Assembly: GCA_027306885.1 (NCBI GenBank)
Contig: DAHUYV010000072.1
Location: 1 to 60,716, forward strand
Direction: 5' to 3'
Origin: Candidatus Dormiibacterota bacterium
GTDB lineage: Bacteria; Chloroflexota; Dormibacteria; Aeolococcales; Bog-877
Length of the DNA: 60,716 nucleotides
The notes below the pieces were generated by a model, which saw only the letters and a list, made by a program, of their open reading frames with translations, searched no databases and was not told the origin of the DNA. Positions 7,488 to 23,362 of this stretch are shown in pieces. Position 1 is the stretch's first letter. Every line of letters starts with the position of its first letter. The position numbers and the translations under genes are program-made.

Positions 7488-8786
7488 ATGACCCCCCGGG
7501 CTCTCTGGCTGGGGCTGGTGGCGGTGGGCGTCCTCCTCGCCGGCGCGGGCTGGTCCCCGTTGACGGGCGTGGGCGCCGCCCTGGTGGTGGTCTGGGCCGC
7601 CGCCTGCGCCGCGGACTGGTGGGCGGCCCCCCGGGAGTGGCAGGTGGAGCGGTTGTGCGGAGCGGCGATGAGCCTTGGGTCCGAGAACCGGGTGGAGCTG
7701 CGGCTCGCCGCTCGCGTCCGGCGGCCCACGCGCCTCACCTGCCGCGATGAATGCGACCCGGAGCTGGGCGCCCGGCCCAGCGTCATGGAGCTGACAGTGC
7801 CGAAGCTCGGCTGGGGGGTGGCCGAGTACGTCTGCGTCCCCGTCCGGCGGGGGCGGCTGAGCTTTCATCGGGTGCTGGTCCGCTGCCCGGGGCCGCTGGG
7901 ACTCTGGCGCCGCCAGGCGGCCATCGCCGCGCCCGCGGTGGTACCGGTGTACCCGGCCCTGCGCGCCATCGGGAGATGGGAGAGCCTGGTGCGCCGGGGA
8001 GGGGTTGCCGAGATGGGGGTGCGCAGCTGGCGTCGCTACGGTGAGGGGACGGAGTTCGCCGGGATCCGGGAGTACGTGGATGGAGACGATCCCCGCCGAG
8101 TCAACTGGCGAGCCACGGCCCGGCTCGGTCGGGCGATGACCAGTCAGTACGAGCCGGAGCGGTCGCGGCCGGTTTGGCTGGTGCTGGACTGCGGGCGGCT
8201 GATGGCGGCTGGTGAGGAGGGGCTCACCAAGCTCGACGTGGCGCTGGCCTCGGCCCTGCTCCTGGCCTGGGTGGCTCTCTTCCGTGGAGATCGAGTCGGG
8301 GCGGTGGCGGTCGCCGAGGGGCTGGTTGGTCTGGCCCCGCCGCGCTCCGGGCGGAGCCACTATCAGCGCCTGCTTGAGGGCCTCAGCGGGCTGAGACCGC
8401 ATCTGGTGGATCCGGACTGGGAGCTGGCGATCACCGAGCTGCGCCGTCGGCCCGGTCCGCGGGCTCTGGTCGTCACGTTCACCGACCTTGCGGATCCCGC
8501 CCTCTCCGAGCGGCTCGCGGCATCCCTCAGCCGGCTGCGCCCGCACCACCTGCCCCTGGTGGTGACCCAGACCGACCCGGTGCTGGAGCGGGAGCTCCGC
8601 TCGGTGCCGAATGATCAGAGGAGCGTGCTCCGGAGGGCCGCCGCCCTTCAGCTCCTCGGCGAACGGCGGTCGGCTCTGGCTCGGCTGGAGGCGCTCGGGG
8701 TCTTCACCGTGGACAGCGGCCGCGCCGGAGTCGGCCCGGCGGTGATCAACCGGTACCTCGAGCTGAAGGCCCGGGGGGCCCTCTGA
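7488..8786 (+). CDS. DUF58 / VWA-like protein
   Basis: EFAGIREYVDGDDPRRVNWRATAR, VLDCGRLM and GDRVG; directly downstream of moxR. Confidence 0.9.
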   Translation: MTPRALWLGLVAVGVLLAGAGWSPLTGVGAALVVVWAAACAADWWAAPREWQVERLCGAAMSLGSENRVELRLAARVRRPTRLTCRDECDPELGARPSVMELTVPKLGWGVAEYVCVPVRRGRLSFHRVLVRCPGPLGLWRRQAAIAAPAVVPVYPALRAIGRWESLVRRGGVAEMGVRSWRRYGEGTEFAGIREYVDGDDPRRVNWRATARLGRAMTSQYEPERSRPVWLVLDCGRLMAAGEEGLTKLDVALASALLLAWVALFRGDRVGAVAVAEGLVGLAPPRSGRSHYQRLLEGLSGLRPHLVDPDWELAITELRRRPGPRALVVTFTDLADPALSERLAASLSRLRPHHLPLVVTQTDPVLERELRSVPNDQRSVLRRAAALQLLGERRSALARLEALGVFTVDSGRAGVGPAVINRYLELKARGAL

Positions 8787-8795
8787 GCTCGGGCG

Positions 8796-9683
8796 CTAGG
8801 CGGGGAGCGCCGCCGGTTCCGGGTCCATCGCCTCCAGGGTGGTGATCACCTCGCGGGTGATCTGGGACGGGGTGGAGGCGCCGGAGGTGACCCCGACCCG
8901 GTGCATCCCGCGAAACCACTCCGGGCGGAGGTCGGCGGCGGAGTCGACCAGGTGTGCGGGGCGGTGCGCCAGGTCTGCCACCACCTGGACCAGCCGCTGG
9001 GTGTTGCTGCTGCGCGAGCTGCCCACCACGATCACCAGGTCGCAGGAGGCGGCCGCCTCGACCGCCGCCTGCTGCCGCTCCTGGGTGGCGAGGCAGATCT
9101 CGTTGTGCACCTCGATCTGGGGAAACCGCTGACGCAGCCGCTCGATTATCGCCCCGGTGTCCCACATCGAGAGCGTGGTCTGGGTGGTCACCGCCAGCTT
9201 GTCAGATTCGAGTTCGAGGTGGTCGACCTCCTCCACCGACTCCACCAGGTGGATGGACTCGGGGGCCTCCCCGAGCACCCCCTCAGGCTCCGGATGGCCC
9301 CGTCTGCCGAGGTAGATGACGGTGTAGCCGTCGGCGCACAGGCTGCGCACCAGTTCGTGGGTGCGAACCACGTCGCTGCAGGTGGCGTCGACGACCTTCA
9401 GCCCCTTGGCGAGGGCGCGCTCCCGTACCTCCGGGGACACCCCGTGGGCGGTGAGCACGATGGTCCCCGTCTCCACCTGGTCCAGGGCGGCCAGCCGCGA
9501 CGGCGCGTCGACCAGCCTCACGCCGAGCTCGGCGAACTCGCGGGTCACGTGCTCGTTGTGCACCAGGTGGCCCAGCATGGCCACCTCCTCACCCGGGCGC
9601 TCGGCCGCCGCCTGGCGCAGGGCCCGAATCGCCTCGACGACGCCGTGGCAGTAGCCCCGGGGCCTGATCTTGACCACCTCCAC
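8796..9683 (-). CDS. ispH: 4-hydroxy-3-methylbut-2-enyl diphosphate reductase
   Basis: Three Fe-S cysteines (GYCHGV, DATC, ICLATQERQ), VHNEHV, AHG, SSNT and TSGASTP. Confidence 0.97.
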   Translation of the reverse strand: MEVVKIRPRGYCHGVVEAIRALRQAAAERPGEEVAMLGHLVHNEHVTREFAELGVRLVDAPSRLAALDQVETGTIVLTAHGVSPEVRERALAKGLKVVDATCSDVVRTHELVRSLCADGYTVIYLGRRGHPEPEGVLGEAPESIHLVESVEEVDHLELESDKLAVTTQTTLSMWDTGAIIERLRQRFPQIEVHNEICLATQERQQAAVEAAASCDLVIVVGSSRSSNTQRLVQVVADLAHRPAHLVDSAADLRPEWFRGMHRVGVTSGASTPSQITREVITTLEAMDPEPAALPA

Positions 9684-9692
9684 GCTTCAAGC

Positions 9693-10685
9693 CTACCAGT
9701 TGCCCGAGATCGAGCCCGCCGGCCCGGTGGCCGTCCTGCGCCCGCTGAGGAGCAGCCAGCCGTAGAGCAGCGCCCCGCTGGCCAGTCCCACAGCGACCTT
9801 GGCCGGATCGGGGAGAGCCGAAGGCGTCACGAACCCCTCGATGATCCCTGCCACCACCAGGAGGCAGGCCGCGCCGAGGGCCAGCTCCACGGCCGGGCGC
9901 GCCGCTGCGACCAGCGCCTCCTCCCGGCTGCGCAGGCCGGGCCGGAGCACGGCGTCCCCCATCCGCAGCCCGGCGCCCGCAGCCGTGCAGATCACCGTCA
10001 GCTCGATCACCCCGTGGGGGACGATGAGGGCCCAGAACTGCAGGTCCAGCCCGGCGAGGTGGCTGGCCCCGGCGAGGACTCCCAGCTGGAACCCGTTGAC
10101 CAGCAGGAGAGCGACCGTGGGAATCCCCAGCAGCAGCCCCAGGACGCAGGCCAGGGCGGCCACCCGGATGTTGTTCTGGATGATGAACGCCGAGAGCTGG
10201 GAGCCGAGCTGGCCGCTGAGCGCGGCCGGGTTCCCCAGCTGGTGCGCGGCGAGGCTGGCCCGGTACCCGGCGGGCAGCAGCCCGCCGAGATCCGGCCTCA
10301 GGGTGGCCGCCGCCCAGCCGGTGGCGGTCCCGGTCAGCAGGCAGAGCCCCGCTCCGGCCACGTAGACCCGGGACTCGCGGAAGCGCCGCGGCAGGCCGAA
10401 GGCGAAGAAGCCGGGGAGGCGGGCGACACCGCTCCCCGGCCTTCGGTACAGGACCGGCTGTGCCGCGGCCAGCACCCGCTCCAGCTGCGGGACCAGCTCC
10501 GATCCCGGGTAGTCACGGCGCACCGTGGCCAGGTCTCCGCTCACCAGGCGTACCAGCTCGGAGAGCCGGTCGACCTCGGCGACCCCCACCTGGCGCAACC
10601 GGCGGCCGCGCATTGACCCCGCCAGCCGGACGAGCTCCTGCCAGCGCGGCCCGGCCCGGCGGACGAACTCCTCCTGGCCGATCAC
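9693..10685 (-). CDS. Stage II sporulation protein M (SpoIIM/DUF95) family membrane protein
   Basis: FIIQNNIRVA, LLVNGFQLG and LIVPHGVIELT motifs; divergent from an RDD gene as in the known cluster. Confidence 0.85.
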   Translation of the reverse strand: MIGQEEFVRRAGPRWQELVRLAGSMRGRRLRQVGVAEVDRLSELVRLVSGDLATVRRDYPGSELVPQLERVLAAAQPVLYRRPGSGVARLPGFFAFGLPRRFRESRVYVAGAGLCLLTGTATGWAAATLRPDLGGLLPAGYRASLAAHQLGNPAALSGQLGSQLSAFIIQNNIRVAALACVLGLLLGIPTVALLLVNGFQLGVLAGASHLAGLDLQFWALIVPHGVIELTVICTAAGAGLRMGDAVLRPGLRSREEALVAAARPAVELALGAACLLVVAGIIEGFVTPSALPDPAKVAVGLASGALLYGWLLLSGRRTATGPAGSISGNW

Positions 10686-10721
10686 GCCGGCGCCCGCGCC
10701 GAGATACCATGCCGACCAGCT

Positions 10722-11528
10722 GTGCTGGATCGCTTCGAGTACCGCACGCCGGAGAGCCTCTCGGTGTCGCAGCCGGTGGCCGGGATCGGCTCCCGCGGCC
10801 TCGCCGCGCTGGTGGACAGCGGGCTCATCCTCGTGATCATGCTCATCCTGGTCGCGGCCGCCCTCGCCATCTCCGGATTCACCCTGAGCGTCGTTCCCTC
10901 CGGGCCGGTGCTGATCGTGATCGTCGTCGTGGCCTCCGTCGTCCCGGTCGCCTACTACGTGATCTGCGAGCTGGCCTCAGGGGGCCGATCCGTGGGGAAG
11001 TACATGTTCGGGCTCCGGGTGGTCGACCGCGACGGCGTCCCCCTCAGCGCCGGCGACTCCCTGGTGCGCAACCTGGTGCGGATTGTGGACTTCCTGCCGG
11101 TGCTGTACGGGGTGGGAGTGGTGGTGATGTTCGCCGGCAGCCGACCGCGGCGGCTGGGCGACCTGGCGGCGGGGACCGTGGTGATCCACGATCGGGGGCT
11201 GCGTCGGCTCGCCCAGGAGCTCGGCCCGGGCGGGGCGGTTCGGCTGGGGCGGACCGAACCCGGGCTCCCCCTTCCCGGGCTGGAGCGGGCCGGGCGGTTC
11301 GAGCTCGCCCTCTTGGACGACTTCTTCAGCCGCACCCAGCTGACTCCCGAGCGCCGGGCCCAGCTGGCGACAGAGCTGGTCGGCGCGCTGGAGAAGCGAA
11401 CCGGAATCCCACTTCGCGACGAGTCGGGTTCAGGGGGCCTCGACGCGCTCGAGCGCCTCTACCTGCAGCTGCGCTGGCGGCTCATCGGCCCCGGGCCGGA
11501 GTCCGGTCCCGCCACTCCACCGGCCTGA
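10722..11528 (+). CDS. RDD family membrane protein
   Basis: AGIGSRGLAALVD, GRSVGKYMFGLRVV, VRNLVRIVD and RRLGDLAAGTVVI. Confidence 0.9.
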   Translation: MLDRFEYRTPESLSVSQPVAGIGSRGLAALVDSGLILVIMLILVAAALAISGFTLSVVPSGPVLIVIVVVASVVPVAYYVICELASGGRSVGKYMFGLRVVDRDGVPLSAGDSLVRNLVRIVDFLPVLYGVGVVVMFAGSRPRRLGDLAAGTVVIHDRGLRRLAQELGPGGAVRLGRTEPGLPLPGLERAGRFELALLDDFFSRTQLTPERRAQLATELVGALEKRTGIPLRDESGSGGLDALERLYLQLRWRLIGPGPESGPATPPA

Positions 11529-11811
11529 AGTCGCGCTCCGGAGATGGAGCCCGCGATCTTCGTGGCGCCCGCTCCGGCGCCGGTCCCTCGGGCCCGGCCG
11601 GGAGGGTGCGACGCACCGTGGTGGGCCGCCGCGAAGCCTCCACCACCGCCTCCATGAACGCCCACCCGCGGTACATCGCGTAGGCCGCCAGCCCCAGGAG
11701 CGTCAGCCCCGCCACCAGGTTGAGCAGCCCCGCCAGCGGCGGCGCCACCACCCCCAGGGCGGCGCATCCCCCGACCACGGCAAGACCGGTCTTGAACCTA
11801 CCTCGGGCCAT
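11482..11811 (-). CDS. Small hypothetical membrane protein (2 TM)
   Basis: ATG with a strong SD (GGAGGAG), two hydrophobic segments and a low-complexity tail overlapping the RDD gene end. Confidence 0.5.
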   Translation of the reverse strand: MARGRFKTGLAVVGGCAALGVVAPPLAGLLNLVAGLTLLGLAAYAMYRGWAFMEAVVEASRRPTTVRRTLPAGPEGPAPERAPRRSRAPSPERDFRPVEWRDRTPARGR

Positions 11812-11863
11812 CGTCTCCTCCGTCCCCCGAGGGATGCGCAGGTGGCCGGGATACCATCGAGAG

Positions 11864-12463
11864 GTGATCTCTCCTCCCCGGCGGCCAGATGGCGGCCAGG
11901 GCCGCCACCCGTATCGCACCTGGCTCCACCTGCTGCCCCTGGAACGCCAGCAGGCGCTGGCTCCGGGGGCCGAGCTGGTGGCCAGCCGGATCCTCATCGA
12001 CGCGGGGATGGCGCTGGCCGCGCCGGAGGGCGGCCTGCGACCGGGACCGGAGTTCGCACGGGTGCTGGGAGGGCGCCCCGGATCTCTGCCGATGGCGCTG
12101 CCGGGGCGGGGAGAGGTGCGGGTCGAGGCCGGCAGCTGGCGCTGCTACCCGGACCCCGGGCCCGAGGGCTTCGACACCGAGCCGCCCCGGGGGTACCGGG
12201 CCAGCTGCCCTCACTGCGCCGGCGAGGTTGAGCTGTTCCGGCTGGGGTTCCCCTTTCCCGATCCGCTCACCGCGGCCTGCCCCCGGTGCGCCGGCGCCCT
12301 GCCGCTCCTGGAGCTGGAGTTCGTGCCCGACCTGCCCGCCGCCCGCCTGGAGATCACCTTCGGCGACCTCGAGCGCCGCCCCAGCCTGGCCGGCCACCCG
12401 GTCTGGGCTGAGCTGGAGAGCGCCTTGGGGTTCCCCCTGCGGGAGGTGCACGTCACCCTCTGA
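11864..12463 (+). CDS. Hypothetical protein with two CxxC motifs (zinc ribbon)
   Basis: CPHC and CPRC. GTG at 11864 follows TACCAT-N6. Confidence 0.65.
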   Translation: MISPPRRPDGGQGRHPYRTWLHLLPLERQQALAPGAELVASRILIDAGMALAAPEGGLRPGPEFARVLGGRPGSLPMALPGRGEVRVEAGSWRCYPDPGPEGFDTEPPRGYRASCPHCAGEVELFRLGFPFPDPLTAACPRCAGALPLLELEFVPDLPAARLEITFGDLERRPSLAGHPVWAELESALGFPLREVHVTL

Positions 12464-12469
12464 GCGCCT

Positions 12470-13366
12470 TCACACCTCCTCGGCGGAGAGCCGCCGGACC
12501 GCCCGGGTCCAGCGCCGCGCCGCCGCCTCGGCACTGCTCTGGTAGTGGGTCGCCACGTTGAGGGCGCCGGGGACCCGGAGCATCAGGTACAGGCTGGCGA
12601 AGGCGTAGAGCATGCCGGCCAACCCGTGGCCCCGGGCGAAGGCCAGCTGCACCGCCACCCTCAGCACCAGCAGCTGCCCGAACTGCATGAAGAGGGAGAC
12701 CACCACCAGACGGCCCCACTGGCGGGCGAAGCCCCTTGTCTCGGGCAGCACCGTGCAGTAGGCGACCAGCGGAGCGCAGGCGCAGAGAACCGCCAGAAGC
12801 GTGTAGCGCACCACATAGCTCAGCGCCAGGATCACCACCGCCACCACCAGGGCGGCCGTGAACAGCAGGAGGAAGAGGTTGTCGGATGCCGACGCCACCG
12901 ACCCCGAGGTGAGGGGCGAGCTCCACGGCAGATCGGCGACATTCACGGCGGCGCCGCCCACCACCACCTGGCAGAGGGCGTTGTTGAGATCGATCAGCTG
13001 CTGGAGGAGGGGCAGGCTGGTGACGCTGAGCGCCACCGCCACCAGGCAGCGGGGGAGCACCGCCTGCAGGCTGTGGCGCACCCCACCGAAGTCGGCCACC
13101 GTGCGCAGCGAGCTGTACAGGACGATCGCCACCAGCAGAGCCGCCCCGGCCGCCGCCAAGAGGTGGTTGAGCGGCGCCAGCCCGGGGCTGTCGGTGAACG
13201 GCGCCTTGGGGTACGGACCCGCGGCGTCGTAGGTGCCGAACAGGTAGCTCTGGAGGGCGGCGTCGAGCGCCGACCGCGCGCTGGACACGAAGTCGGTGAG
13301 GGTCCCGGTGAGCAGGCTCACCAGGACGCCGAGCGGGTTGAGGGTGAACTGGGGCAGGCTGGGCAC
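12470..13366 (-). CDS. VirB6/TrbL-like polytopic membrane protein (module 1)
   Basis: About 7 TM segments with the TrbL-like pattern L..VVRYTLLAVL...APLVAYC.VLPETRGFARQWGR. It follows a pilin-like gene. Start estimated at GTG 13366. Confidence 0.65.
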   Translation of the reverse strand: MPSLPQFTLNPLGVLVSLLTGTLTDFVSSARSALDAALQSYLFGTYDAAGPYPKAPFTDSPGLAPLNHLLAAAGAALLVAIVLYSSLRTVADFGGVRHSLQAVLPRCLVAVALSVTSLPLLQQLIDLNNALCQVVVGGAAVNVADLPWSSPLTSGSVASASDNLFLLLFTAALVVAVVILALSYVVRYTLLAVLCACAPLVAYCTVLPETRGFARQWGRLVVVSLFMQFGQLLVLRVAVQLAFARGHGLAGMLYAFASLYLMLRVPGALNVATHYQSSAEAAARRWTRAVRRLSAEEV

Positions 13367-13380
13367 CGCCCGCGTGCCCC

Positions 13381-13620
13381 TCAGCCCGCCCCGTGAGGGA
13401 CCGCCGAGAGCAGAACGTGGGTCAGGACTCCGGCGAGCTCCACCCCAAGGGTCCCAAGGGCGATCCGCCCGAGCCAGCGCTGAGCCTCCAGGGCGCTGTG
13501 GGGGCTGGGGGCGACAACCCGCCAGACGAAGGCGCACACGAAGGCCAGGGTGCCGAGGCTGGCGATCAGCTCCTGGCCGAGCAGCACCCAGGAGTTGATC
13601 AGGGCGACCAGTTCAGGCAC
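13381..13620 (-). CDS. Small 2-TM protein, VirB2/TrbC pilin-like (module 1)
   Basis: 79 aa with two hydrophobic helices and a strong SD (GAGGAGG), immediately upstream of the virB6-like gene. The pilin call rests on size, topology and position. Confidence 0.5.
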   Translation of the reverse strand: MPELVALINSWVLLGQELIASLGTLAFVCAFVWRVVAPSPHSALEAQRWLGRIALGTLGVELAGVLTHVLLSAVPHGAG

Positions 13621-13701
13621 GGAATCCCTCCTCGCGGGCGGCGGATCCCCTCCTACGTCCGCTGGGCGGGTGCTTCCGGATCGGACCTTCTGCGGGGCCG
13701 A

Positions 13702-14172
13702 TCAGCCGCAGTCGGTCTCCCAGATCGGCTCGCCGACGCTCACCACCAGGGTGACGGGCCCGTCGTTGACCAGAGAGACCTCCATGTGGGCTCCGAAGCG
13801 GCCCTCCGCCACCGAGCGAACGCCGAGGGCCCGCAGCTCCTCGGCGAAGGCGGAGCAGAGCTCGGCGGCCATCACCGGGGGGCCGGCGCCCACGAAGGAG
13901 GGGCGATGACCCCGGCGGGCATCCGCGTACAGGGTGAACTGGCTGACCACCAACGCCTCACCCTGCGCGTCGAGCAGGGAGCGGTTCATGCGGCCATCGG
14001 AGTCCGGGAACACCCTGAGGCTCGCCACCCGGCCGGCGAGGTGTCGGGCCACCTGGGCGTCGTCGGCCGGGCCGACCGCCAGGAGGAACAGCAGGCCCTC
14101 GCCGATCTCTCCGACCGTCTCCCCCGCCACGGAGACCCCGGCCTGCGCCACCCGCTGGACCACCGCGCGCAC
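13702..14172 (-). CDS. dtd: D-aminoacyl-tRNA deacylase
   Basis: MRAVVQRV, SQFTLY, GRFGAHMEVSLVNDGPVT. Confidence 0.97.
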   Translation of the reverse strand: MRAVVQRVAQAGVSVAGETVGEIGEGLLFLLAVGPADDAQVARHLAGRVASLRVFPDSDGRMNRSLLDAQGEALVVSQFTLYADARRGHRPSFVGAGPPVMAAELCSAFAEELRALGVRSVAEGRFGAHMEVSLVNDGPVTLVVSVGEPIWETDCG

Positions 14173-14175
14173 CGG

Positions 14176-14772
14176 TCAGCCGATCGCTTGGAGCCCGCGG
14201 TAGATGCGCATGGCCTCGGCCGCGGCCTCGAGGAAGCCGCCCGCCTCCGCTCGCATTCCCTGCAGGGCGAAGCGCCACTGCCCCGGGGGGGAGGGGGGGC
14301 CGGGCAGGGTGCGTCCCCCGTAGCGCGGCGGATAGAAGGTGATCGTGCCCCGGGGCATGCGCTTGAAGATGGGGCTCGCCACCATCAGCTCGTCGATGGT
14401 TCGGGTGCCACTGACCGCACCCTCGATGAACTCGACACGGCGCTGCTTCCGAATCGGGTTGTCGGGATCGTCGAGGAGCACCCGGCCACCGTGCTCCCCG
14501 GTCAGCCCCAGCAGCCCGAAGCACACCGCCAGGGCGTCGGTCTCGTCGCCCTCGACCTTGACGAATCCCGCGCCCAGCACCGGCTCCCGGCAGTCCAGGC
14601 GGAGATGGCGCAGGTACTCTGACTCGAAGAGCCCCCGGGATCCGTCGGTCGCCAGCCACATGGCGGCATCCCTCCAGACCCTGGTCTCGGCGAACCGGCT
14701 CACCGCGTCGGCCCAGATCCCGGCGGTCGCTCGGCCAGGATTCAGCAGCCGGTAGCGCACCACCCGACCCAT
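14176..14772 (-). CDS. Hypothetical protein
   Basis: Clean ORF with a leaderless promoter (TAGAAT-N6-ATG), coupled to dtd; no recognised family. Confidence 0.65.
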   Translation of the reverse strand: MGRVVRYRLLNPGRATAGIWADAVSRFAETRVWRDAAMWLATDGSRGLFESEYLRHLRLDCREPVLGAGFVKVEGDETDALAVCFGLLGLTGEHGGRVLLDDPDNPIRKQRRVEFIEGAVSGTRTIDELMVASPIFKRMPRGTITFYPPRYGGRTLPGPPSPPGQWRFALQGMRAEAGGFLEAAAEAMRIYRGLQAIG

Positions 14773-14781
14773 GGGCCGATT

Positions 14782-16752
14782 CTATAGGTGCCCGTCGCGA
14801 GCGCCGAGTTTGAGTGATTCCCCAGATGTCGCCAGGTATGGATGACGATCCGGGCGGGCCTCGACCGAGAGCGGCACCCGCACCGCCCCGGAGACCAGGA
14901 GGAACTCCCCACGGCGAGCTCGCTGCAGCCACTCCCGGTCCCGGTCCTCGAGGTCGAAGGTGGTCTGCAGCCGCAGCGCTCCCCGCCCGCCCTGCCCTCC
15001 CAGCAGCACGGTCGCCGAATTGGTCGCCACCAGCTCGCCGAAGCTCTCCTCGGTCAGGTCCTGGGCCGCCTGGGTGAGAAGCAGCAGCGACCCCTGGTAC
15101 TTGCGGATGCGCCGAGCCATCTGTCCCATCAGCTCGCGCAGGCAGCGGTGGGCCCCGAGAAGTCCGGCCTCGTCGACGATGATCTGCTTGGCCCGCGGCT
15201 CCCGCCGGGCCCACGCCCACAGCCACTGTGAAACCAGCCAGGCGGCGCCAGGGATCCACGTGGACGGCAGCTCCCGGAGCCCGATCCCCAGCACTCCGTC
15301 CACCCCCGGCCCCCGCCCGGGCTGGTTGAACTGCCCCCCCGGCCGCCCCTCCAGCCACGGCCGAAGCCGGGCCGCCAGGGCTGAGGACTCGGGCCGCCGA
15401 CGCATCGGGGCCAGACAATCGCCGAGGACCGGGCGGGCCCGTCGCTCCGGCGCCAGGACCTCGGCGCAGGCCTCCAGAAAGCTGCCGGCCTCGGCGGCCG
15501 ACAGCGGGCCACCGAGGAGCGCGGCGAGTTCCAGGGCCGCGAGAGCCGCCTCACCGGGGTCGCCCGCCTCCAGCACGTTGAAGCCGAGGCTCTGGCCGGC
15601 CGCCAGATCCAGGTAGGTGCCGCCGGCGGCCTCGCACCAGCGGCGGTGCTCAGACTCCGGGTCGACCACCACGGTCAGGACCCCGCGGGAGGCCGCCTCC
15701 ATCCCCACCACCCCCGCGAGGTAGGACTTGCCCCCACCGGAGGTGGCGATGACGCAGCAGTTGCCGTTGGGCGTTCCCCGGAAGGAGGCTAGGCCGAGGC
15801 CCACCGGCCGCCCGGTGCGTCGGTGCCGGCCGACCCGGTACCGACCCGGCGCCATCTCGGCGGCTCCATCCAGCCAGGGCCAGAGGCTGGCCACTTCGCG
15901 GGTCTCCAGGAGGCGCCGCGCCGGCCGGGGCGGGAATCTCAGTCCCCGGCTCTCCAGCAACGCCGGCAGCTCCTCCAGCCAGGCCGGCGCGAGCCGGGCC
16001 CGGAGAGCGGCGGCCCGCTGCCGCAATCGCTGCTGACCGGCTCCGACCTCCGCCGGCGAACCGCCCAACGACAGCGTCACCGCCACCTCGAAGAGACGGC
16101 CCTCGCCGCGGGCCAGCACCTGCCTCAGCCGGTCGGCGGCCCTCCTGGAGGCCTCCAGAGCGGGGCCCGCCCCGCCGAGATCGCCGGCCAGGGCCCGCGC
16201 TTGCAGGCTGCGCAGCCGCCGCCGCAGCTGCCGGTCCGCCTCCGCCGCCGGCTTGGGCGCGATCGAGACCGTGAGGTCGAGGTCCGCTGGCTCCCCCAGC
16301 AGCTCCCAGAGCCATCCGGGCTCCACCTCGGCCTCCGGGAACCTCATGAGCCGCAGGCACTCGATCCAGCTGCCGCCGCAGGTCAGCCCCCGGGCGGATT
16401 CGTGCCAGGGGCCCTCGGCCATCGTGGGCAGCGCCCCGGCGCGGTTGACCTCGGCGTCGCAAAGGGCGCTCAGCCGGGCGGCGACCGAGTCGGCGGCCGC
16501 CTCGTCCCGCACCCGCAGGTGGACGCTCCGGACGCGCTCCCGCCCCGGGCAACCCCCGCTACTGTCCATCGCCTCGCGGGAACTGACGGTAAGTTGCGCC
16601 GGGGCCCGCAGCTGGTCAAGCCAGGCCGTGAAGCCGCCAAGGAGCCGCTCCCGGTGAGCCACGCTGGCGTCCAGGATGTCCGGCGCCCGAACCGTCCAGA
16701 GTGTCGAGGAGTCGGGGTCGCCCCCTTCCGGCCCTCGGGCCCCTAGGTCCAC
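14782..16752 (-). CDS. virB4: VirB4/TraE-like secretion ATPase (module 1)
   Basis: Walker A IATSGGGKSY, VVDPESE, Walker B IIVDEAG, ARRIRKYQGSLLLLTQ. The N-terminal region resembles Gram-positive VirB4. Start estimated at GTG 16752, overlapping the prgI-like stop. Confidence 0.85.
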   Translation of the reverse strand: MDLGARGPEGGDPDSSTLWTVRAPDILDASVAHRERLLGGFTAWLDQLRAPAQLTVSSREAMDSSGGCPGRERVRSVHLRVRDEAAADSVAARLSALCDAEVNRAGALPTMAEGPWHESARGLTCGGSWIECLRLMRFPEAEVEPGWLWELLGEPADLDLTVSIAPKPAAEADRQLRRRLRSLQARALAGDLGGAGPALEASRRAADRLRQVLARGEGRLFEVAVTLSLGGSPAEVGAGQQRLRQRAAALRARLAPAWLEELPALLESRGLRFPPRPARRLLETREVASLWPWLDGAAEMAPGRYRVGRHRRTGRPVGLGLASFRGTPNGNCCVIATSGGGKSYLAGVVGMEAASRGVLTVVVDPESEHRRWCEAAGGTYLDLAAGQSLGFNVLEAGDPGEAALAALELAALLGGPLSAAEAGSFLEACAEVLAPERRARPVLGDCLAPMRRRPESSALAARLRPWLEGRPGGQFNQPGRGPGVDGVLGIGLRELPSTWIPGAAWLVSQWLWAWARREPRAKQIIVDEAGLLGAHRCLRELMGQMARRIRKYQGSLLLLTQAAQDLTEESFGELVATNSATVLLGGQGGRGALRLQTTFDLEDRDREWLQRARRGEFLLVSGAVRVPLSVEARPDRHPYLATSGESLKLGARDGHL

Positions 16753-17027
16753 CGCGCCTGGTCCAGCCGCTGCGCGAGCCGGCGCCCGGCCCACCCCACC
16801 AGGCGCAGCGACCAGAGGGAGAACGGGACTTCGAGCAGGCGGCCCCAGGCCAGCAGCGCGGCGGCCCCCAGCACGGCGCTGGCCAGCCCCACCCGCAGCC
16901 CCTCCGGCAGGGGGGCCCGGAGCATCGCCGCTCCGACTGCCAGGGCGGCACCGAGGACCGCCAGGCGGCCGGCCGTCAGGCCCAGCGCGAATGGCTCCTC
17001 CCGCTCTCGACCGTCGCTGAAGGTCAC
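16743..17027 (-). CDS. PrgI/VirB3-like small membrane protein (module 1)
   Basis: REEPFALGLTAGRLAVL followed by two TM helices and a P motif; directly upstream of virB4. Confidence 0.65.
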   Translation of the reverse strand: MTFSDGREREEPFALGLTAGRLAVLGAALAVGAAMLRAPLPEGLRVGLASAVLGAAALLAWGRLLEVPFSLWSLRLVGWAGRRLAQRLDQARWT

Positions 17028-17258
17028 GTTCTTAGAGCAGCGAGGTCCGATCTCGCCATGGTCGTGCCCTCGGCCGGCAGCCCGGCCGGTGGGGCTGAAA
17101 CGGCTGGGAGCGCCGCCATCCCTCTCTTGCCGACCTCCAAGGCGAGCCCTCCTCCGCTGGCCATCTCCCCGTCTGTCAGTCCTCCGGGCGCGGGGGCCCG
17201 GGCGGCGGCGGCGAAGGCACGTCCGGTGGCGGGTGTCCCTGGGGTCAGATCCTCTCGG

Positions 17259-17597
17259 TCAGGGGCGCCTCAGCTCCACGGTGAAGCCCAACGTCTGAGC
17301 GGCCAGCCGGGGCTCCTTGGTCACCCGAACCACCGCGCCCTCGGCCCCGGGAAGCGCCAGCACGGCGTCCGCGATCTTCCCGGCGAGCGCCTCCAGGAGC
17401 TGGCAGCTGGGACCCTCCACCTGGGCCCGCACCGCCGCCTCGATCACGGAGTAGCTGAGGGTGTCCTCCAGCCGGTCACTGGCCGCGGCCGGCGCGAGGT
17501 TGCTCGCCACCTCCACATCGACGACGAAGTGGGAGCCAAGTTCGCGCTCCGCCTGGTGAACGCCGTGGCGCCCGAAGTACCTGAGGCCGGAGAGCAC
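17259..17597 (-). CDS. folB: Dihydroneopterin aldolase
   Basis: LSGLRYFGRHGVHQAERELGSHFVVDV, TLSY, LLEALA and VRVTKEP. Confidence 0.93.
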   Translation of the reverse strand: MLSGLRYFGRHGVHQAERELGSHFVVDVEVASNLAPAAASDRLEDTLSYSVIEAAVRAQVEGPSCQLLEALAGKIADAVLALPGAEGAVVRVTKEPRLAAQTLGFTVELRRP

Positions 17598-17641: not shown

Positions 17642-18088
17642 TCAGGAAGCGGGGCCCGGAGGTGAGTCGACCGCCTCTATGGAGTCGATGTGCAGCACCT
17701 CGCGCCGGTTGTCCCGGGTGGGGAAGAGCAGCACCAGGGTTTGGGAGAGGGCCGCCACCACCTGGCCCACGTCGCCGACCGCGATGGTGGTGATCGGCTC
17801 GCCGGTGCTGTGCCGGACGACGTCGGTCACCCGCACCCAGCTCCCCGGGGGCCAGCGCATCTCCGGGGTGAGCTCGTCGGGTCCCAGGTCCTCAGGCGAG
17901 ACGTTGCTGCGGTTCCCCCCCCATGGCCGGGGCGGTGACGGCCGGGCCGCCGGCCGCGGCGCCGGGACCGCCTCCTCGAGCTCCTCCGGCTCCTCGGGGA
18001 GCTCGTCCCCAACATCGGAAGCGCCGGCGTCGGCGCCCGGCGCCGGCTCGATGTCGGGCTCGTCGTTCTCGGGGGGAGTGGTGGCCAT
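17642..18088 (-). CDS. Hypothetical protein (acidic disordered N-terminus, small beta-barrel-like C-terminus)
   Basis: ATG with SD GAGGA; the C-terminal GSWVRV...GDVGQVV...LVLLF pattern is SH3/KOW-like. Confidence 0.6.
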   Translation of the reverse strand: MATTPPENDEPDIEPAPGADAGASDVGDELPEEPEELEEAVPAPRPAARPSPPRPWGGNRSNVSPEDLGPDELTPEMRWPPGSWVRVTDVVRHSTGEPITTIAVGDVGQVVAALSQTLVLLFPTRDNRREVLHIDSIEAVDSPPGPAS

Positions 18089-18153
18089 GATCCTCAGCAT
18101 TCCGGGTTTCCGCAGACTCGCCTCAGCCTAGCATGCCACTGCGGCGGCCCCGG

Positions 18154-18561
18154 TCACTCCTCGCTCACGGAGGCGATCCGCCACAGCTCCCCGGTGATCT
18201 CGACGCCCACCCTCAGCTGGACCGCGTCATCGGCCGACGCCGGCGTGATGCCCGCAGCCATGAAACTGGTTCGGTCGCGGTACCGGACCCGGAGCCAGAG
18301 CGAGCTCGAGCTGCCTCCGGGCGCCACCTCCAGGTGCAGAGACTCGCGGAACGGACTCACTTGGATGCCCGCCATCTGGTAGGCCTGGAAGCGGGCCTGG
18401 ACCTCGCTCAGGGCGTCGCCGGTGAGGGCCTGTCCCAGCCGAGCCAGGTTCCCCGTGGTCGCCGCCTCATCGACCACCGCCAGCGCCCGGACCAGCTCGG
18501 TCCGGGCCCGCTCGGCGATCTGCGGCACGCTCGCCCGCCGGCGCAGCGGGAGGTTGGGCAC
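18154..18561 (-). CDS. Hypothetical protein, possibly NTF2-like fold
   Basis: Helical N-terminal half followed by beta-strands ending WRIASV. GTG start just after the upstream stop. Confidence 0.55.
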   Translation of the reverse strand: MPNLPLRRRASVPQIAERARTELVRALAVVDEAATTGNLARLGQALTGDALSEVQARFQAYQMAGIQVSPFRESLHLEVAPGGSSSSLWLRVRYRDRTSFMAAGITPASADDAVQLRVGVEITGELWRIASVSEE

Positions 18562-18568
18562 GACCGGC

Positions 18569-19216
18569 TCAGTTGGTCCGCGGCCGGAGCGGGCGCAGCA
18601 GGTCGGTGGGCAGGTAGGCGGTCTGGGGCGGCCCACCGGCATCGATCACCTGGGCTCCCGTCGAGCTGGGGCTGGAATCCAGGGAGACCGGCGGCGGCGG
18701 CACCTGGACGGGGGTCTCGTTGGCCCAGTCGAAGTCGGGCGTCGCCCGACCCGAGCTCCCGGCCGGGCCCGCCTCTCGGACCGGGCCGGCGGCGACCGGC
18801 AACGGCGCCGGCTCAAGGCTGAGGGCCGTCTCGCGCGCCGGCGGAGTGCCGCCCGGGGAGGATCGGCCGAGCAGCAGGGCCGGCAGGGACTCGGTGGCCG
18901 GGAGCATGGTCATGCCGGTGGCCTCTGCCATCCACCGCACCGTCTCCGGGGGCCAGATGGAGCCGGACGCGTCCACAAAGCAGCGGGTCGGTGAGAGGTG
19001 GGGCACCTGCCCCAGCAGGGTGAAGCCGGGATGGGCGGCGCACACCACCGCGTCCGGTCCCGAGCCCGACTCGACCAGCGAGCGGATCGGCTCCAGGCTG
19101 CTTATCGGGTCGGCGAGGTCGGGGTCGGCGTCCGGGCCGACCACTCGGAAGTTGGGGAGCAGATGGCGGACCCGGATCGCCAGGTCGGAATCGCCCACCA
19201 CCACCACGATCGCCAT
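18569..19216 (-). CDS. Hypothetical protein (alpha/beta N-terminal domain, Pro-rich tail)
   Basis: Clean co-directional ORF between menC and folB; no family recognised with confidence. Confidence 0.6.
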   Translation of the reverse strand: MAIVVVVGDSDLAIRVRHLLPNFRVVGPDADPDLADPISSLEPIRSLVESGSGPDAVVCAAHPGFTLLGQVPHLSPTRCFVDASGSIWPPETVRWMAEATGMTMLPATESLPALLLGRSSPGGTPPARETALSLEPAPLPVAAGPVREAGPAGSSGRATPDFDWANETPVQVPPPPVSLDSSPSSTGAQVIDAGGPPQTAYLPTDLLRPLRPRTN

Positions 19217-19265: not shown

Positions 19266-20393
19266 TCATGCCACCTCCTCCATGTGGATGGTGGCCCGGT
19301 CCAGCCGGGCGGGGTCCACCTCGACTCCGAGCCCCGGCCCCTCGGGGACCGGCAGCGTGCCGTCGGAGGAAAGGCGGAAGGGAGGGTCCACCAGGTCCTC
19401 GGTGAAGTACCGGTCGCTGGCGGAGGTGTCGCCGGGAAGGGTGAAGCCGGGGAGCGAGGCCAAAGCGAGGTTGGCCGCGCGGCCGATGCCGGTCTCGAGC
19501 ATCCCCCCGCACCAGACCGGCCAACCGGCGGTCACACAGGCGTCGTGCACTGCTCGCGAAGGCACCAGACCCCCAACCCGGCCGGACTTGATGTTGAGGA
19601 TCCGGCCAGACTCAAGGTGCACGGCCGCCCTCAGGTCGGCGAGGGACTCCACACTCTCGTCCAGGCAGATCGGGGTGGCGATGGCCGCCTGCAGCTGGGC
19701 GTGGTCGATGAGGTCGTCGTGACCTAGGGGCTGCTCGATCATCATCAGGTTGAACTGGTCCAGCTGCCGGAGGTGATCCAGGTCCGCCAGGGTGTAGGCG
19801 CTGTTGGCGTCCAGCATCATCGGAGTGTCGGGGAAGGCTGAGCGGACCGCTCGGGCCAGCTCCACGTCGTACCCCGGCTTGCACTTGAGCTTGATGCGCC
19901 GGTACCCCTGCGCCAGGTAGCCGCCGATGAGATCCAGGGTGGCGGGGAGCGAGGGCTGGATACCGATGCTCACCCCACTTGGGATCCGCCGCTTCTCGCC
20001 ACCGAGGATGGTGGCGAGGCTGAGCCCCGAGGCCTGGCCACCGAGGTCCAGCAGAGCCATCTCCGCGGCTGCCTTGGCCATGTTGTGGCCGCGCACCCAC
20101 CCCCACCGCTCGCTGAGCGCCAGCGGGTCGGCGGCCTCGCCTCCGAGAACCGAGGGCAGGATGTGAGATCGCAGCGCCTCCATCGCGGTGGCCGCGGTCT
20201 CGGCCGAGTAGCCCGGCTCGATCCCCGCCGCGCACTCGCCGAGTCCACGCAAGCCGCCGGCGTACAGCTCCACCAGCACCGCGCGGCGCTCGGTCTGGGT
20301 CCCGAAGCTGGTGGTGAAGGGCGAGACCAGCGGAAGGGAGACCACCCGCAATCGGGCCCGTTCGATCCGCAGCGCGGGCAGCGCTCGGATCAC
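19266..20393 (-). CDS. menC: o-Succinylbenzoate synthase / N-succinyl(acyl)amino acid racemase (enolase superfamily)
   Basis: RIKLK, MLDAN, IEQP, LDES, NIKSGRVGG, WCGGMLETG and DTSAS. GTGA overlap with the M20 gene. Confidence 0.92.
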   Translation of the reverse strand: MIRALPALRIERARLRVVSLPLVSPFTTSFGTQTERRAVLVELYAGGLRGLGECAAGIEPGYSAETAATAMEALRSHILPSVLGGEAADPLALSERWGWVRGHNMAKAAAEMALLDLGGQASGLSLATILGGEKRRIPSGVSIGIQPSLPATLDLIGGYLAQGYRRIKLKCKPGYDVELARAVRSAFPDTPMMLDANSAYTLADLDHLRQLDQFNLMMIEQPLGHDDLIDHAQLQAAIATPICLDESVESLADLRAAVHLESGRILNIKSGRVGGLVPSRAVHDACVTAGWPVWCGGMLETGIGRAANLALASLPGFTLPGDTSASDRYFTEDLVDPPFRLSSDGTLPVPEGPGLGVEVDPARLDRATIHMEEVA

Positions 20394-21562
20394 TCTCCGA
20401 CCCCCTCGCCGGTCAGGGCCCACAGGCAACCCGCCAGCAGCGCGGCGCGGTCGGGAATCGAGGTCAGGTCGGCCCACTCCCCCTCGGCGTGGGCGCGGCC
20501 GCCGACGATGCCGAGCCCGTCCAGCGTCGGGACCCCGAGGGCGGCCGTGAAGTTGCCGTCGCTGCCCCCGCCGACCTGGACGCCCTGCAGCTCGTCCCAG
20601 CCCAGCCAGGCGGCCACCTCCCCCGCAAGGCTGAAGAGTCCCGCCGCCGCCTCCCGTTCCAGCGGAGGACGGTTCAACCCTCCCGTCACCTCGACGCGCG
20701 CCTCCGGGTGGGCCGGGGCCAGCTCCCGGAGCCCGCGATCGACCCGCGCCGACTCGGCCGCTGTCGGGAAGCGGGCGTCGACCCGCAGCTCAGCCCGATC
20801 CGGCACCACGTTGGTGCGCGCACCCCCGAGGAAGACGGTCGGCGTGACCGTGGTGCCCGCGACGGGGTCGGCCAGCGCCTCCACCGCCGGGACCAGGCGA
20901 GCCAGCTCGACGACCGCGTTCACCCCCGACTCCGGCTCCAGCCCGGCGTGAGCGGCGCGGCCGCGCACCTCCAGCCGGTAGGTGCCCACCCCCTTGCGGC
21001 CGATCTTGACCGCCGAGCCGGCCGGGGGCTCCAGCACCAACACGGCGCGGCTGCGACGGGCCTCCTCCTCGATGAGCGCCCGGGAGGTGGCGCTGCCGAC
21101 CTCCTCATCCCCGGTGCAGAGAAGTCGTACCGGAGGCTGAGGCCCGCCGAGTGCGGCCAGCGCAGCCAGGGCCGCCAGGCCCACCACCACGCCTCCCTTC
21201 ATGTCGAAGACGCCCGGGCCCACCGCTCGCCCGCCCTGTCGCTGGAAGCCGCCGGGGAAGGCGCCCCGCTCCCACACGGTGTCCAGGTGGCAGAGGAGCA
21301 GCACCGCCCTGCCTTCGACCCCGCCGGTCAGCAGCCTGAGGTGGGGAATCCCCCCCACGAACTCCCACGAGGCCTCCCGTGGCGAGAACCACCGGGAGGC
21401 GAGGTTGGCGACCGCGGTGGCACAGCTCTTGATGCCGTCTCCGTCGCCGCTGGGAGACTCCAGGCCGACCAACTCGGCCACCGCTGAGGACCATTGGTCG
21501 GCTCGGCCCGACAGCCAGGCACGCAGCTCGGCGGCAGGCACGGGAGCGGAGATGGGGCCCAC
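20390..21562 (-). CDS. M20 family metallopeptidase (carboxypeptidase G2-like)
   Basis: CHLDTVW, GPGVFDMKGG, DEEVGS, VLEP, AAHAG, GGGSDGNF and DGLG. Confidence 0.9.
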   Translation of the reverse strand: MGPISAPVPAAELRAWLSGRADQWSSAVAELVGLESPSGDGDGIKSCATAVANLASRWFSPREASWEFVGGIPHLRLLTGGVEGRAVLLLCHLDTVWERGAFPGGFQRQGGRAVGPGVFDMKGGVVVGLAALAALAALGGPQPPVRLLCTGDEEVGSATSRALIEEEARRSRAVLVLEPPAGSAVKIGRKGVGTYRLEVRGRAAHAGLEPESGVNAVVELARLVPAVEALADPVAGTTVTPTVFLGGARTNVVPDRAELRVDARFPTAAESARVDRGLRELAPAHPEARVEVTGGLNRPPLEREAAAGLFSLAGEVAAWLGWDELQGVQVGGGSDGNFTAALGVPTLDGLGIVGGRAHAEGEWADLTSIPDRAALLAGCLWALTGEGVGE

Positions 21563-21592
21563 CCCCAGATTCTATTGCGGTGCGGGCCAGAG

Positions 21593-21813: not shown

Positions 21814-22446
21814 CTACTTGCAGACCCACTCCGACGACTCGCCGATGGAGAACATCTTGGCGGCGATATTCGCCTGCTGGGTGGGGTCCCAGATGTCCGT
21901 CCCGCCGTGGCCGTAGAAGGTGGCGGGCATGAATTGGAAGAGGCCGCTGGCGCCCGAGGATCGATTGACGTCCGTGGGGTTCAGGCCGGACTCACACTGG
22001 GCCACTCCCAGCAGCCAGCTGTACGAGACGTTGTACTTCTGAGCCGCGGCCCAGATGATCTGCTTGATCGTGCCGACCGGTGGCTCGGCCACCGGTTGCC
22101 AGAACGCGCTCCCGTACGGCCGCGCCGCTGCCGCCGCCGGAGGGGGGGGTGGAGTCACCTTGGTCACCGACAACGGCATGGTGATCTCATACCCGGTGCT
22201 GGAGAGGACGTTGCGTCCCTGGCCCGCCAGTTGGGCGATCACACTCGGCGCTGGCGAACTCGGACCCACCACCGACCCGGTGGTCAGGGCTCCGATCACC
22301 GGCGCCAGAGCCATGAGGCAGACGGCGGCCGCCGCCCAGCGCAGTCGCCCCGCCAGCAGCGGCAGCGAGCGCTGCCGCGCCGCCGCCTGCGGCCGGAGCG
22401 TCAGCTCAAGCGGGGCCGTATATGAAACCCAGGTACCCTGCGCCAT
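21814..22446 (-). CDS. Membrane-anchored lytic transglycosylase (SLT/Rpf-like)
   Basis: TM segment, Pro-rich linker, then AQCESG (catalytic Glu), ASGLFQF and a C-terminal EWVCK. Confidence 0.85.
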   Translation of the reverse strand: MAQGTWVSYTAPLELTLRPQAAARQRSLPLLAGRLRWAAAAVCLMALAPVIGALTTGSVVGPSSPAPSVIAQLAGQGRNVLSSTGYEITMPLSVTKVTPPPPPAAAAARPYGSAFWQPVAEPPVGTIKQIIWAAAQKYNVSYSWLLGVAQCESGLNPTDVNRSSGASGLFQFMPATFYGHGGTDIWDPTQQANIAAKMFSIGESSEWVCK

Positions 22447-23362
22447 CTGTCACCCATCTGTAGTCGACTCTGTCCCACCCGCCTCCCGGAACGCCCGAGA
22501 AGTTCATCTCCGAGATCTCGAAGGACCCCGGCTTCACCGCCACCACGTAGGCGACATGTCCGTACCCGTAGCTCTCGCCAGCCACATCGATGCCCCACAC
22601 CACCACCGAGCCCACCTCTGGCGTCTGCCCCTCGGCGTACCCCGCGGCCGCCGCGTTGGCCCACCACTGGTAGGCGTTGCCACCCCAGGTCACCTTGCGC
22701 TGGGAGGCAACCCACCAGGTGCAGTCGCCGAAGGCGAACGACCAGTTGCCGGTCCCGATGCTCGGCTGCGGCGTGGTGAGCTCAGCCAGAAGCTGCTGCG
22801 ACTTCACCCCCAACTGGTCCTGGACGGCCATCGCCTGGCCCTCGTCGGCCCGCAGCTGGGCGGTGGAGGTCGCCACCACCTGCTGGTCGTGCTCAATGGT
22901 GCCCACCAGCTGGGCGACCTGAGAGGCGACGGCGGCCGGGAGCGTCGTGCTGGCGAGGAACTGGGAGAGGTTGGGGGCGGCCAAGGCGTCGGCCACCGCC
23001 TGACTGCCGTTCCCGTCCACATACGCGGTGCTGACCAGGTTGGTGAGCGCGAGCCGGTCGGCCGCCATCTGCTGCTGCAGGGCTCCGGCCGCCTGCTGAT
23101 CTGCGGACAGCTTGGAGTTGAGCTGCACGAGGTAGGCCTGCTCGCTCTGGATTTGGGTCAGCAGAGCAAGCACCTGGCTCTGTGAGGTGAGATCCCCCTG
23201 AGCGCGGAGCTGGTCTAGCAGTCGGGTGAGCTGGGCCTGGTCATTGGCGAGTCCCTGCTGGGCGCTGGCGTTAGGACCTGGCCCCAGCACGGCTGAGAGC
23301 CAGACCATTCCGGCCATCGTGATCGCAAGCGAGACGCGCCCAAGAACTTGGGCTCCGCGCAT
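22406..23362 (-). CDS. Secreted coiled-coil + CHAP domain peptidoglycan hydrolase
   Basis: Signal-like N-terminus, coiled coil, FAFGDCTWWV, YGHVAYV; ends LGFIYG. ATG with SD GGGAGG. Confidence 0.88.
   Translation of the reverse strand: MRGAQVLGRVSLAITMAGMVWLSAVLGPGPNASAQQGLANDQAQLTRLLDQLRAQGDLTSQSQVLALLTQIQSEQAYLVQLNSKLSADQQAAGALQQQMAADRLALTNLVSTAYVDGNGSQAVADALAAPNLSQFLASTTLPAAVASQVAQLVGTIEHDQQVVATSTAQLRADEGQAMAVQDQLGVKSQQLLAELTTPQPSIGTGNWSFAFGDCTWWVASQRKVTWGGNAYQWWANAAAAGYAEGQTPEVGSVVVWGIDVAGESYGYGHVAYVVAVKPGSFEISEMNFSGVPGGGWDRVDYRWVTDGAGYLGFIYGPA

Follow-up and report, generated by a model that had tools for sequence, protein, structure and literature searches.

Within a 60,716-nucleotide stretch of DNA from a Candidatus Dormiibacterota bacterium (the window, with a G+C content of 73%), a gene for D-aminoacyl-tRNA deacylase (dtd), a housekeeping tRNA-proofreading enzyme, was found among genes resembling those of a type IV secretion system (T4SS), and this raises the question of whether these secretion genes, here called module 1, form part of an excisable element or of the chromosome, and of what, if anything, ties dtd to them. 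The closest protein relatives of the window were in metagenome-assembled genomes (MAGs) of Candidatus Dormibacterota, abundant, uncultured soil bacteria, with a top VirB4 match that was 96% identical. From the comparisons given below we consider it likely that the T4SS genes are fixed in the chromosome and vertically inherited, and that dtd is one of two genes in a housekeeping unit apart from them, which has a conserved promoter of its own.

The genes of module 1 run on the minus strand, and their order, as a first-pass annotation of this DNA had given it, was confirmed by domain scans and by the sequence. Upstream lies the housekeeping gene folB (17259-17597; dihydroneopterin aldolase, Pfam FolB 2.6e-25 and TIGR00525 75.4 bits against a cutoff of 72), whose position was kept in every Dormibacterota locus that was long enough. 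After a gap of 231 nt there follow sm94 (16743-17027), encoding a PrgI/VirB3-like protein of 94 amino acids (aa); virB4_1 (14782-16794), encoding a divergent VirB4-family ATPase with AAA_10 and P-loop_TraG domains; hyp198 (14176-14772), encoding a conserved cytoplasmic protein of 198 aa with no family match; dtd itself (13702-14172; Tyr_Deacylase 4.3e-50 and TIGR00256 160 bits against a cutoff of 101.5); sm79 (13381-13620), encoding 79 aa with two predicted membrane helices; and a gene for a TrbL/VirB6-like polytopic membrane protein of 298 aa (12470-13366; Pfam TrbL_4 7.6e-8, 32.5 bits with a gathering score of 27). The annotation was also correct in placing neither a type IV coupling protein (T4CP) nor a hydrolase inside 12470-17027; in the same conserved block, CHAP and SLT hydrolases were found 5 kb upstream of module 1 and a T4CP 17 kb upstream.

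Related loci were compared in a main group of 18 from Dormibacterota (four found by exact-protein look-up and 14 among the 80 loci of a scan, one genome per GTDB species) and in an outgroup made up of the other 66 scanned loci, from Actinomycetes, Chloroflexota, Patescibacteria and a few others, with one (L063) from a Dormibacterota MAG. In 18 of 18 main-group loci, wherever the contig reached, the genes were ordered hemE, CHAP, SLT, M20, menC-like, three hypotheticals, folB, sm94, virB4_1, hyp198, dtd, sm79, trbL and, further along, ispH, so that the synteny of dtd and folB with virB4 was retained throughout. This order held over VirB4 identities of 44-58% and included a contig of 2.39 Mb, and in these relatives a second secretion core, module 2, shared the contig with module 1 at an unchanged relative position. 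The variable insertion context by which a mobile element might be recognised was not seen, the context being identical in all 18. In the outgroup, no dtd or folB lay less than 10 kb from any of the 66 VirB4 genes; 38 of these loci had a detected TrbL-like gene, in each case upstream of VirB4. An interleaving produced by mis-assembly or by a chimeric bin, to which the annotation had drawn attention, can be regarded as refuted, as can a recent mobile element, because at least 18 loci, obtained from independent samples with independent assemblers, had the same order at VirB4 identities down to 44%; nothing was found to speak for mis-assembly.

The pairwise divergences of VirB4_1, TrbL and sm79 followed those of ispH and hemE, with Spearman coefficients of 0.69-0.86, where hemE and ispH themselves gave 0.80. 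No relaxase or integrase domain was found in those of the larger open reading frames of the window that were scanned, no tRNA gene was present in the window, and an Rfam scan of the whole window gave no match. The shared order, the co-divergence with ispH and hemE and the absence of mobility genes together bear out the view, put forward in the annotation, that this arrangement is no excisable element and has resided in the chromosome for a very long time, and they argue for a T4SS that is functional and vertically inherited. A T4SS fixed in the chromosome with no relaxase found, and conserved like core metabolism, suggests a function that is important to the cell.

The same genes could in principle be the decaying, non-functional remnant of an ancient integrated conjugative element. 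Such a remnant would be in keeping with the lack of relaxase and integrase among the scanned frames, with the scattering of the genes among housekeeping ones and with the rate of VirB4_1, which had evolved faster than any other gene of the block (mean p-distance 0.48, compared with 0.34 for hemE, 0.29 for TrbL, 0.18 for ispH and 0.13 for sm79). However, reading frames were intact in nearly all loci, sm79 and TrbL were conserved like core enzymes, as fits purifying selection, the ATPase motifs were invariant and both secretion cores were kept together across the sampled lineages, and we therefore hold decay to be very improbable.

The position of dtd is best understood from its partner. The dtd translation carries the DTD1 stretches SQFTL and NDGPVT (NxGPxT), its GTG start lies 3 nt past the hyp198 stop, and hyp198 was found directly upstream of dtd in every context examined. 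In two loci (L087 and L092) the pair stood alone between divergently oriented neighbours, and no T4SS gene was found up to 10 kb away; in two others (L088 and L093) the order was PrgI-like, VirB4_1-like, a soluble protein of about 600 aa, hyp197, dtd, PALP and CBS. Because the pair stands alone in the first two loci and has another layout in the second two, hyp198-dtd is best read as an independent unit; the annotation was right that dtd is located inside a secretion module, and it is the membership of dtd in that module that these loci do not support. The adjacency of the pair to VirB4_1 is nevertheless old. In L088 (5478-9971) and L093 (4706-9439) the gene before VirB4_1 encodes 210-295 aa with a PrgI-like N-terminus, the soluble protein between VirB4_1 and hyp197-dtd (595-600 aa) has motifs that look glycoside-hydrolase-like by eye, and neither TrbL nor sm79 follows dtd.

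The hyp198 protein itself gave no match in Pfam, NCBIfam or PADLOC. A word-indexed search returned 86 relatives, and the family profile matched only 60 clusters (at 50% identity) among 1.84 billion representatives, with no remote relatives. An AF2/AlphaFold model built from 28 sequences was confident, with a pLDDT of 88.5 and a pTM of 0.83, and a Foldseek search with it against PDB and BFVD returned nothing at E<=0.001. As the invariant motifs include GDETDAL, DxxNPIxKxR and FYPP, the alignment suggests a constrained protein that is possibly enzymatic or ligand-binding. The pair defines a new, narrow protein family with no known fold relatives whose constant partner is a tRNA-proofreading enzyme.

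The annotation had further proposed that hyp198-dtd has its own TAGAAT promoter at the virB4 stop codon. This hexamer (14779-14784, minus strand), a putative -10 box for a leaderless hyp198-dtd transcript, overlaps the virB4_1 stop such that its first three bases are the TAG stop codon, and the hyp198 ATG follows 6 nt further on; no GGAGG-like ribosome-binding sequence was seen before this ATG on inspection of the sequence. TAGAAT occurred three times in the window where about one was expected. When the 70 nt before the hyp198 start were aligned from 24 orthologous loci, the hexamer was TAGAAT in 18 (including the window and the T4SS-free L087), TAAAAT in three, TAGGCT in two and TACAAT in one, and was therefore always TANNNT. 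It stood 6-8 nt before the start codon in every case, including the loci without an upstream T4SS gene, and the sequence around it was unconserved. This conservation strongly supports the proposed promoter, and we infer that the hexamer would be active and give rise to a leaderless mRNA.

Leaderless promoters of Actinobacteria carry a TANNNT -10 box at a distance of 6-8 nt from the start codon. The sites before hyp198, ispH and the M20 gene agree with this in hexamer and in spacing, although the pattern is not documented for Dormibacterota. The ispH start at 9683 (minus strand) has the same architecture as hyp198 (TAGGCT-N6-GTG), and a gene starting at 1971 (minus strand) has TACGGT-N6-GTG. 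In both, 6 nt separate a TANNNT hexamer from the earliest possible start codon, which points to leaderless transcription as a common feature of this genome. The TANNNT-N6-8-start pattern is a first handle on promoter architecture in Dormibacterota, and with the hyp198 family this conserved leaderless-type promoter is a further small finding of the analysis.

If hyp198-dtd is transcribed in this way, its internal promoter would allow Dtd to be made independently of T4SS regulation. A possible alternative is that the pair is coupled to secretion, with breaches of peptidoglycan, in the cell's own wall or in that of a neighbour, exposing the cell to D-amino acids and Dtd retained in the cluster to clear D-aminoacyl-tRNAs, perhaps with help from the M20 and menC-like products. 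VirB4_1 lies beside hyp198-dtd in two deeply separated lineages despite differing intervening genes, and the block holds three CHAP/SLT hydrolase genes. It also holds, at 19266-21574 (minus strand), an overlapping M20 deacylase gene and a gene of the menC/N-succinylamino-acid racemase (NSAR) family (TIGR01928, 317 bits), a pair that has its own TAGAAT-N6-GTG at the M20 gene start (21574-21562, minus strand) and keeps its place between module 1 and the hydrolases in every locus. In Geobacillus, NSAR and an M20 desuccinylase together convert D- to L-amino acids, and this too counts in favour of coupling.

Several observations nevertheless point away from such coupling. In L087 and L092 no T4SS gene lies less than 10 kb from the pair, dtd was near none of the 66 outgroup T4SS loci, and the block contains the unrelated hemE, folB, ispH, fumC and plsY as well. 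Moreover, TIGR01928 names o-succinylbenzoate synthase and a UbiA-family gene is nearby, which fits menaquinone synthesis. The M20/menC-like pair could serve either menaquinone synthesis or D-to-L amino-acid conversion, but the D-amino-acid theme stays speculative because the MR_MLE gene scores above cutoff as menC (o-succinylbenzoate synthase). A literature search for a link between dtd and T4SSs returned nothing relevant. We regard functional coupling as unlikely, and prefer the reading of hyp198-dtd as an autonomous housekeeping unit.

Whether module 1 is a secretion module at all depends first on its ATPase. The VirB4_1 family profile matched the Thermoanaerobacter VirB4 structure 4AG5 at 1.6e-59 and TrwK at 4.7e-23 in PDB; among its seven PDB matches no chain was named HerA, and the weaker P-loop matches were a "DNA helicase" (2.8e-5) and a nucleoside triphosphate hydrolase (0.0068). 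The best NCBIfam matches were TraC (8e-19), CD1110 (1e-17) and VirB4_CagE (8e-10), and no equivalog cutoff was reached, the top score being 67 bits against cutoffs of 325-643; by these profile scores VirB4_1 is a divergent member of the VirB4 family and none of the named equivalogs. A HerA/FtsK-like or defence-system ATPase among unrelated membrane proteins, a grouping that the annotation had held open, would draw on a weak PADLOC match to mads_8 (5.9e-6, 24 bits), which we read as general P-loop similarity and not as defence, and on a Pfam DUF87/HerA match at 6.5e-4. The VirB4 models scored far better than these, the neighbours are of the TrbL_4 and PrgI-like types, and a T4CP, a PrgI, a pilin-like protein and hydrolases are encoded in the same conserved block, so that this assignment is scarcely credible.

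VirB4_1 contains both a Walker A (ATSGGGKS) and a Walker B motif (IIVDEAG), of which the GK[ST] and the DE, respectively, were invariant across 43 VirB4 sequences. The annotation had singled out the alanine with which the Walker A motif begins. That alanine is present, but it is no peculiarity: the PROSITE P-loop pattern [AG]-x4-G-K-[ST] admits it, and it was found at this position in 10 of 11 VirB4_1 proteins, in all sampled VirB4s of Patescibacteria and Chloroflexota and in many actinobacterial ones. The VirB4_1 start probably lies about 14 codons downstream of 16794, near 16752, since the protein P0001 is 656 aa long.

A neighbour-joining (NJ) tree of the 43 VirB4s fetched here (midpoint-rooted, with 100 bootstraps, and built without named references for mating-pair formation (MPF) classes, HerA or Ced) recovered three clades at 100% bootstrap: VirB4_1, which included the deep L088 and was confined to Dormibacterota; VirB4_2, the paralogue of module 2; and Patescibacteria with Chloroflexota. 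Outgroup VirB4s scored 160-245 bits against VirB4_2 and 152-177 against VirB4_1, whereas the two paralogues scored 58-130 bits against one another (27% identity, E 5e-22, in the window). By these bit scores and the NJ clade, VirB4_1 is a divergent lineage specific to Dormibacterota and no recent duplicate. The grouping of the Patescibacteria and Chloroflexota VirB4s is in line with the relationship of the species, and bears on whether Patescibacteria obtained their T4SS horizontally.

The L063 locus (8377-15489, from Dormibacterota MAG palsa_863) has a third kind of VirB4, which grouped with those of Acidimicrobiales and other actinobacteria; TrbL lies upstream of it and CHAP downstream. Probably this is a distinct T4SS, and possibly a mobile one, unlike the fixed system described here.

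The small membrane genes of module 1 differed in how far their labels could be upheld. For sm94, which the annotation had called PrgI-like, there was no direct Pfam match, and the label stands only indirectly, through an hhalign alignment to the module-2 PrgI family (probability 80%, E 1.4e-5, 71 columns). The protein also weakly matched the PrgI-like N-terminus of NCBIfam SCO6880_fam (0.089), has a GLTxGxL motif in common with the 126-aa PrgI protein and has predicted membrane helices at residues 13-33 and 43-62. The product of sm79 was the most conserved of module 1, being 79-92% identical across loci and exactly 79 aa long in all of them except the frameshifted L010; its gene is preceded by a ribosome-binding site, GAGGAGG, and its predicted membrane helices span residues 11-32 and 53-71. 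It had no Pfam match (even at E<=5) and no NCBIfam match, showed no similarity to T4SS_pilin (PF18895) or TrbC (PF04956), and aligned to the module-2 pilin-like family with an hhalign probability of 0.1%. The earlier label "pilin-like" has no homology support, and we rejected a pilin assignment, the label fitting only the size and two-helix topology. In L010 (13153-13425) the sm79 orthologue is out of frame past residue 46, through either an assembly error or a pseudogene.

The trbL start is most likely the GTG at 13366, rather than 13537; this codon lies 15 nt past the sm79 stop and gives 298 aa, as in relatives. Orthologues of the protein matched TrbL_3 and TrbL_4, and its membrane core matched the 719-aa protein of module 2 (BLASTP E 1e-5). 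With TrbL_4 above its gathering score and sm94 PrgI-like, the genes flanking the ATPase do include T4SS homologues, a point on which the annotation had made its reading depend. Convergent on trbL, at 11720-12463 on the plus strand, is a conserved gene of 247 aa with two CxxC pairs, zinc-ribbon-like and with weak Pfam matches, which was present at the same place in most relatives.

Upstream of sm79, at about 35 nt, lies the conserved motif CGGACGTAGG (13652-13661, minus strand; GGAC-n-TAGG), a possible regulatory or promoter element, which was seen at the same position in most orthologous loci. The CGGACNTAGG motif was not enriched in the window (11 matches where 16 were expected) and was kept as a position-specific conserved footprint. 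A related GGAC(T) motif was found upstream of the sm94 orthologues (loci L001-L018; at about 17170-17185 on the minus strand in the window), so that GGAC(T) preceded the starts of both the sm94 and the sm79 orthologues by 35-55 nt and was absent upstream of hyp198. This distribution hints that the sm94 and sm79 units share a control element that hyp198-dtd is without.

Module 2 is a second conserved core, 12 kb from module 1, upstream on the same strand. On the minus strand it comprises the T4CP (33636-35204; T4SS-DNA_transf 2.7e-41), a T4SS_pilin-like gene (33352-33639; the window copy matched the Mbov_0395 pilin-like family at 3e-4, and orthologues matched PF18895 at 3e-5 and 8e-5), a VirB6-like gene of 719 aa (31214-33373), PrgI (30837-31217; 2.3e-6, above the gathering score), VirB4_2 (28612-30834; CD1110 9e-48) and a CHAP gene (27947-28615; 2.7e-16), and its order was identical in L085, L086 and L089-L091. 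Between the two modules are the genes for the CHAP (22406-23425, minus strand; Pfam CHAP 9e-17) and SLT (21814-22449, minus strand; Pfam SLT 1.4e-11) peptidoglycan hydrolases, a pair with VirB1-like functions that stood beside hemE in every locus reaching that far.

Three conserved genes (215, about 135 and 152 aa; 17642-19216, minus strand) lay constantly between the menC-like gene and folB and had no family match; the C-terminal 90 aa of the 152-aa protein were about 80-90% identical across the sampled lineages. These genes could encode missing T4SS parts, for example a VirB8-like protein. For hyp162, a candidate VirB8-like protein, the single-sequence AF2 model reached a pLDDT of only 44 and was unusable.

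Taken together, module 1 probably represents half of an ancient monoderm T4SS set, similar to that of the MPF-FATA class, that is found throughout the sampled Dormibacterota. The set comprises two paralogous cores (each VirB3/PrgI-like, VirB4 and VirB6/TrbL-like), one coupling protein and three hydrolase genes; its parts occupy some 23 kb, with housekeeping genes between them. The two cores, which are conserved together, may act as one mixed machine or as two, with module 1 supplying alternative subunits or a second translocator, as the annotation had suggested. In this arrangement sm94-virB4_1 and sm79-trbL would be separate transcription units flanking hyp198-dtd, which, with its own -10 box and leaderless mRNA, would be autonomous and no part of the secretion machinery. 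The PrgI-like, TrbL-like and small two-helix hydrophobic proteins would be expected to form membrane channels that the docked VirB4 hexamers power, while the CHAP and SLT enzymes would open the wall locally and the T4CP would recruit a substrate, presumably one other than the classical relaxase-bound plasmid strand. As no relaxase is nearby, the role may differ from classical conjugation, as has been proposed for Patescibacteria (PMC12102498).

A number of points weigh against this account of a fixed T4SS with an independent hyp198-dtd unit. The promoter and the three-unit operon model are read from sequence conservation. Read-through from a T4SS promoter into hyp198-dtd is also likely, because no terminator-like site was found between virB4_1 and hyp198; a terminator and sigma-70 scan of 11.5-18.7 kb returned none of either, with a tool that needs a -35 box and is blind to a leaderless promoter with only a -10 box. 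The occurrence of VirB4_1 beside hyp198-dtd in two deep lineages (L088/L093 and the main clade) could reflect selected linkage and not frozen history. A relaxase could sit elsewhere in the genome, and no VirB8/PrgL-like match was obtained among the neighbour genes. Finally, the block from plsY to ispH is unusually stable for such divergence.

A bolder reading would make this T4SS an ancestral envelope machine of Dormibacterota, and possibly of Chloroflexota, Dormibacterota and Patescibacteria as a whole, with dual cores that share one T4CP and serve DNA uptake, exchange between cells or another non-conjugative purpose, and with hyp198-dtd, and perhaps the M20/menC-like pair, kept on account of D-amino acids released by the wall hydrolases. 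We think this improbable as a whole; if it were true, the Patescibacteria T4SS need not derive from Gram-positive hosts by horizontal transfer. The locus in any case bears on the question raised for Patescibacteria of whether monoderm T4SSs were horizontally acquired or are older than the split of the phyla.

Among known systems, the Gram-positive MPF-FATA class (pCF10 Prg, ICEBs1 Con and pCW3 Tcp, with the C. difficile CD1110/CD1115 families) has the same component set as Dormibacterota, namely VirB4, PrgI/VirB3, a polytopic VirB6-like protein, CHAP/SLT hydrolases and a VirD4-type coupling protein, and in the window PrgI/VirB3-like and VirB6/TrbL-like genes adjoin VirB4, as is taken to mark a monoderm-type system. 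In contrast to that class, no relaxase, integrase, origin-of-transfer (oriT) context or mobility was found in Dormibacterota, nor a VirB8/PrgL-like gene; all scores were below the NCBIfam equivalog cutoffs, VirB4 is duplicated and the genes are embedded in conserved chromosomal synteny. The nearest relatives outside the phylum were the actinobacterial SCO6880/SCO6881-family clusters and the Chloroflexota VirB4 loci, with VirB4s 28-35% identical. Many of these loci (38 of 66) have a TrbL_4-type partner, as here, but theirs lies upstream of VirB4 where detected and they are free of neighbouring dtd and folB.

The system nearest to that of Dormibacterota is the Patescibacteria T4SS (Quinonero-Coronel et al. 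2025, PMC12102498), which is chromosomal, lineage-wide, mostly vertically inherited, relaxase-less and monoderm-derived, and in which VirB4, PrgI/VirB3, VirB6 and small pilin-like genes lie beside housekeeping genes; a full-text literature search with Dormibacterota and T4SS terms found only a passing mention, in that same paper. The Dormibacterota genes are likewise chromosomal, lineage-wide and without an associated relaxase, and the Patescibacteria VirB4s have an alanine-first Walker A motif, as does VirB4_1. The Dormibacterota genes differ in several respects: their VirB4s fall into two separate clades, neither of them inside the Patescibacteria and Chloroflexota clade (in the NJ tree only); the VirB3/VirB4/VirB6 core is present as two paralogous sets and accompanied by a T4CP; housekeeping units such as hyp198-dtd break up the gene set; and the set is located between plsY and ispH, the fetched flanks showing neither dnaA nor dnaN. 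A chromosomal, relaxase-less T4SS was thus already known from Patescibacteria, and what Dormibacterota add to it are the two paralogous cores, a distinct VirB4 clade and a fixed interleaving with housekeeping genes.

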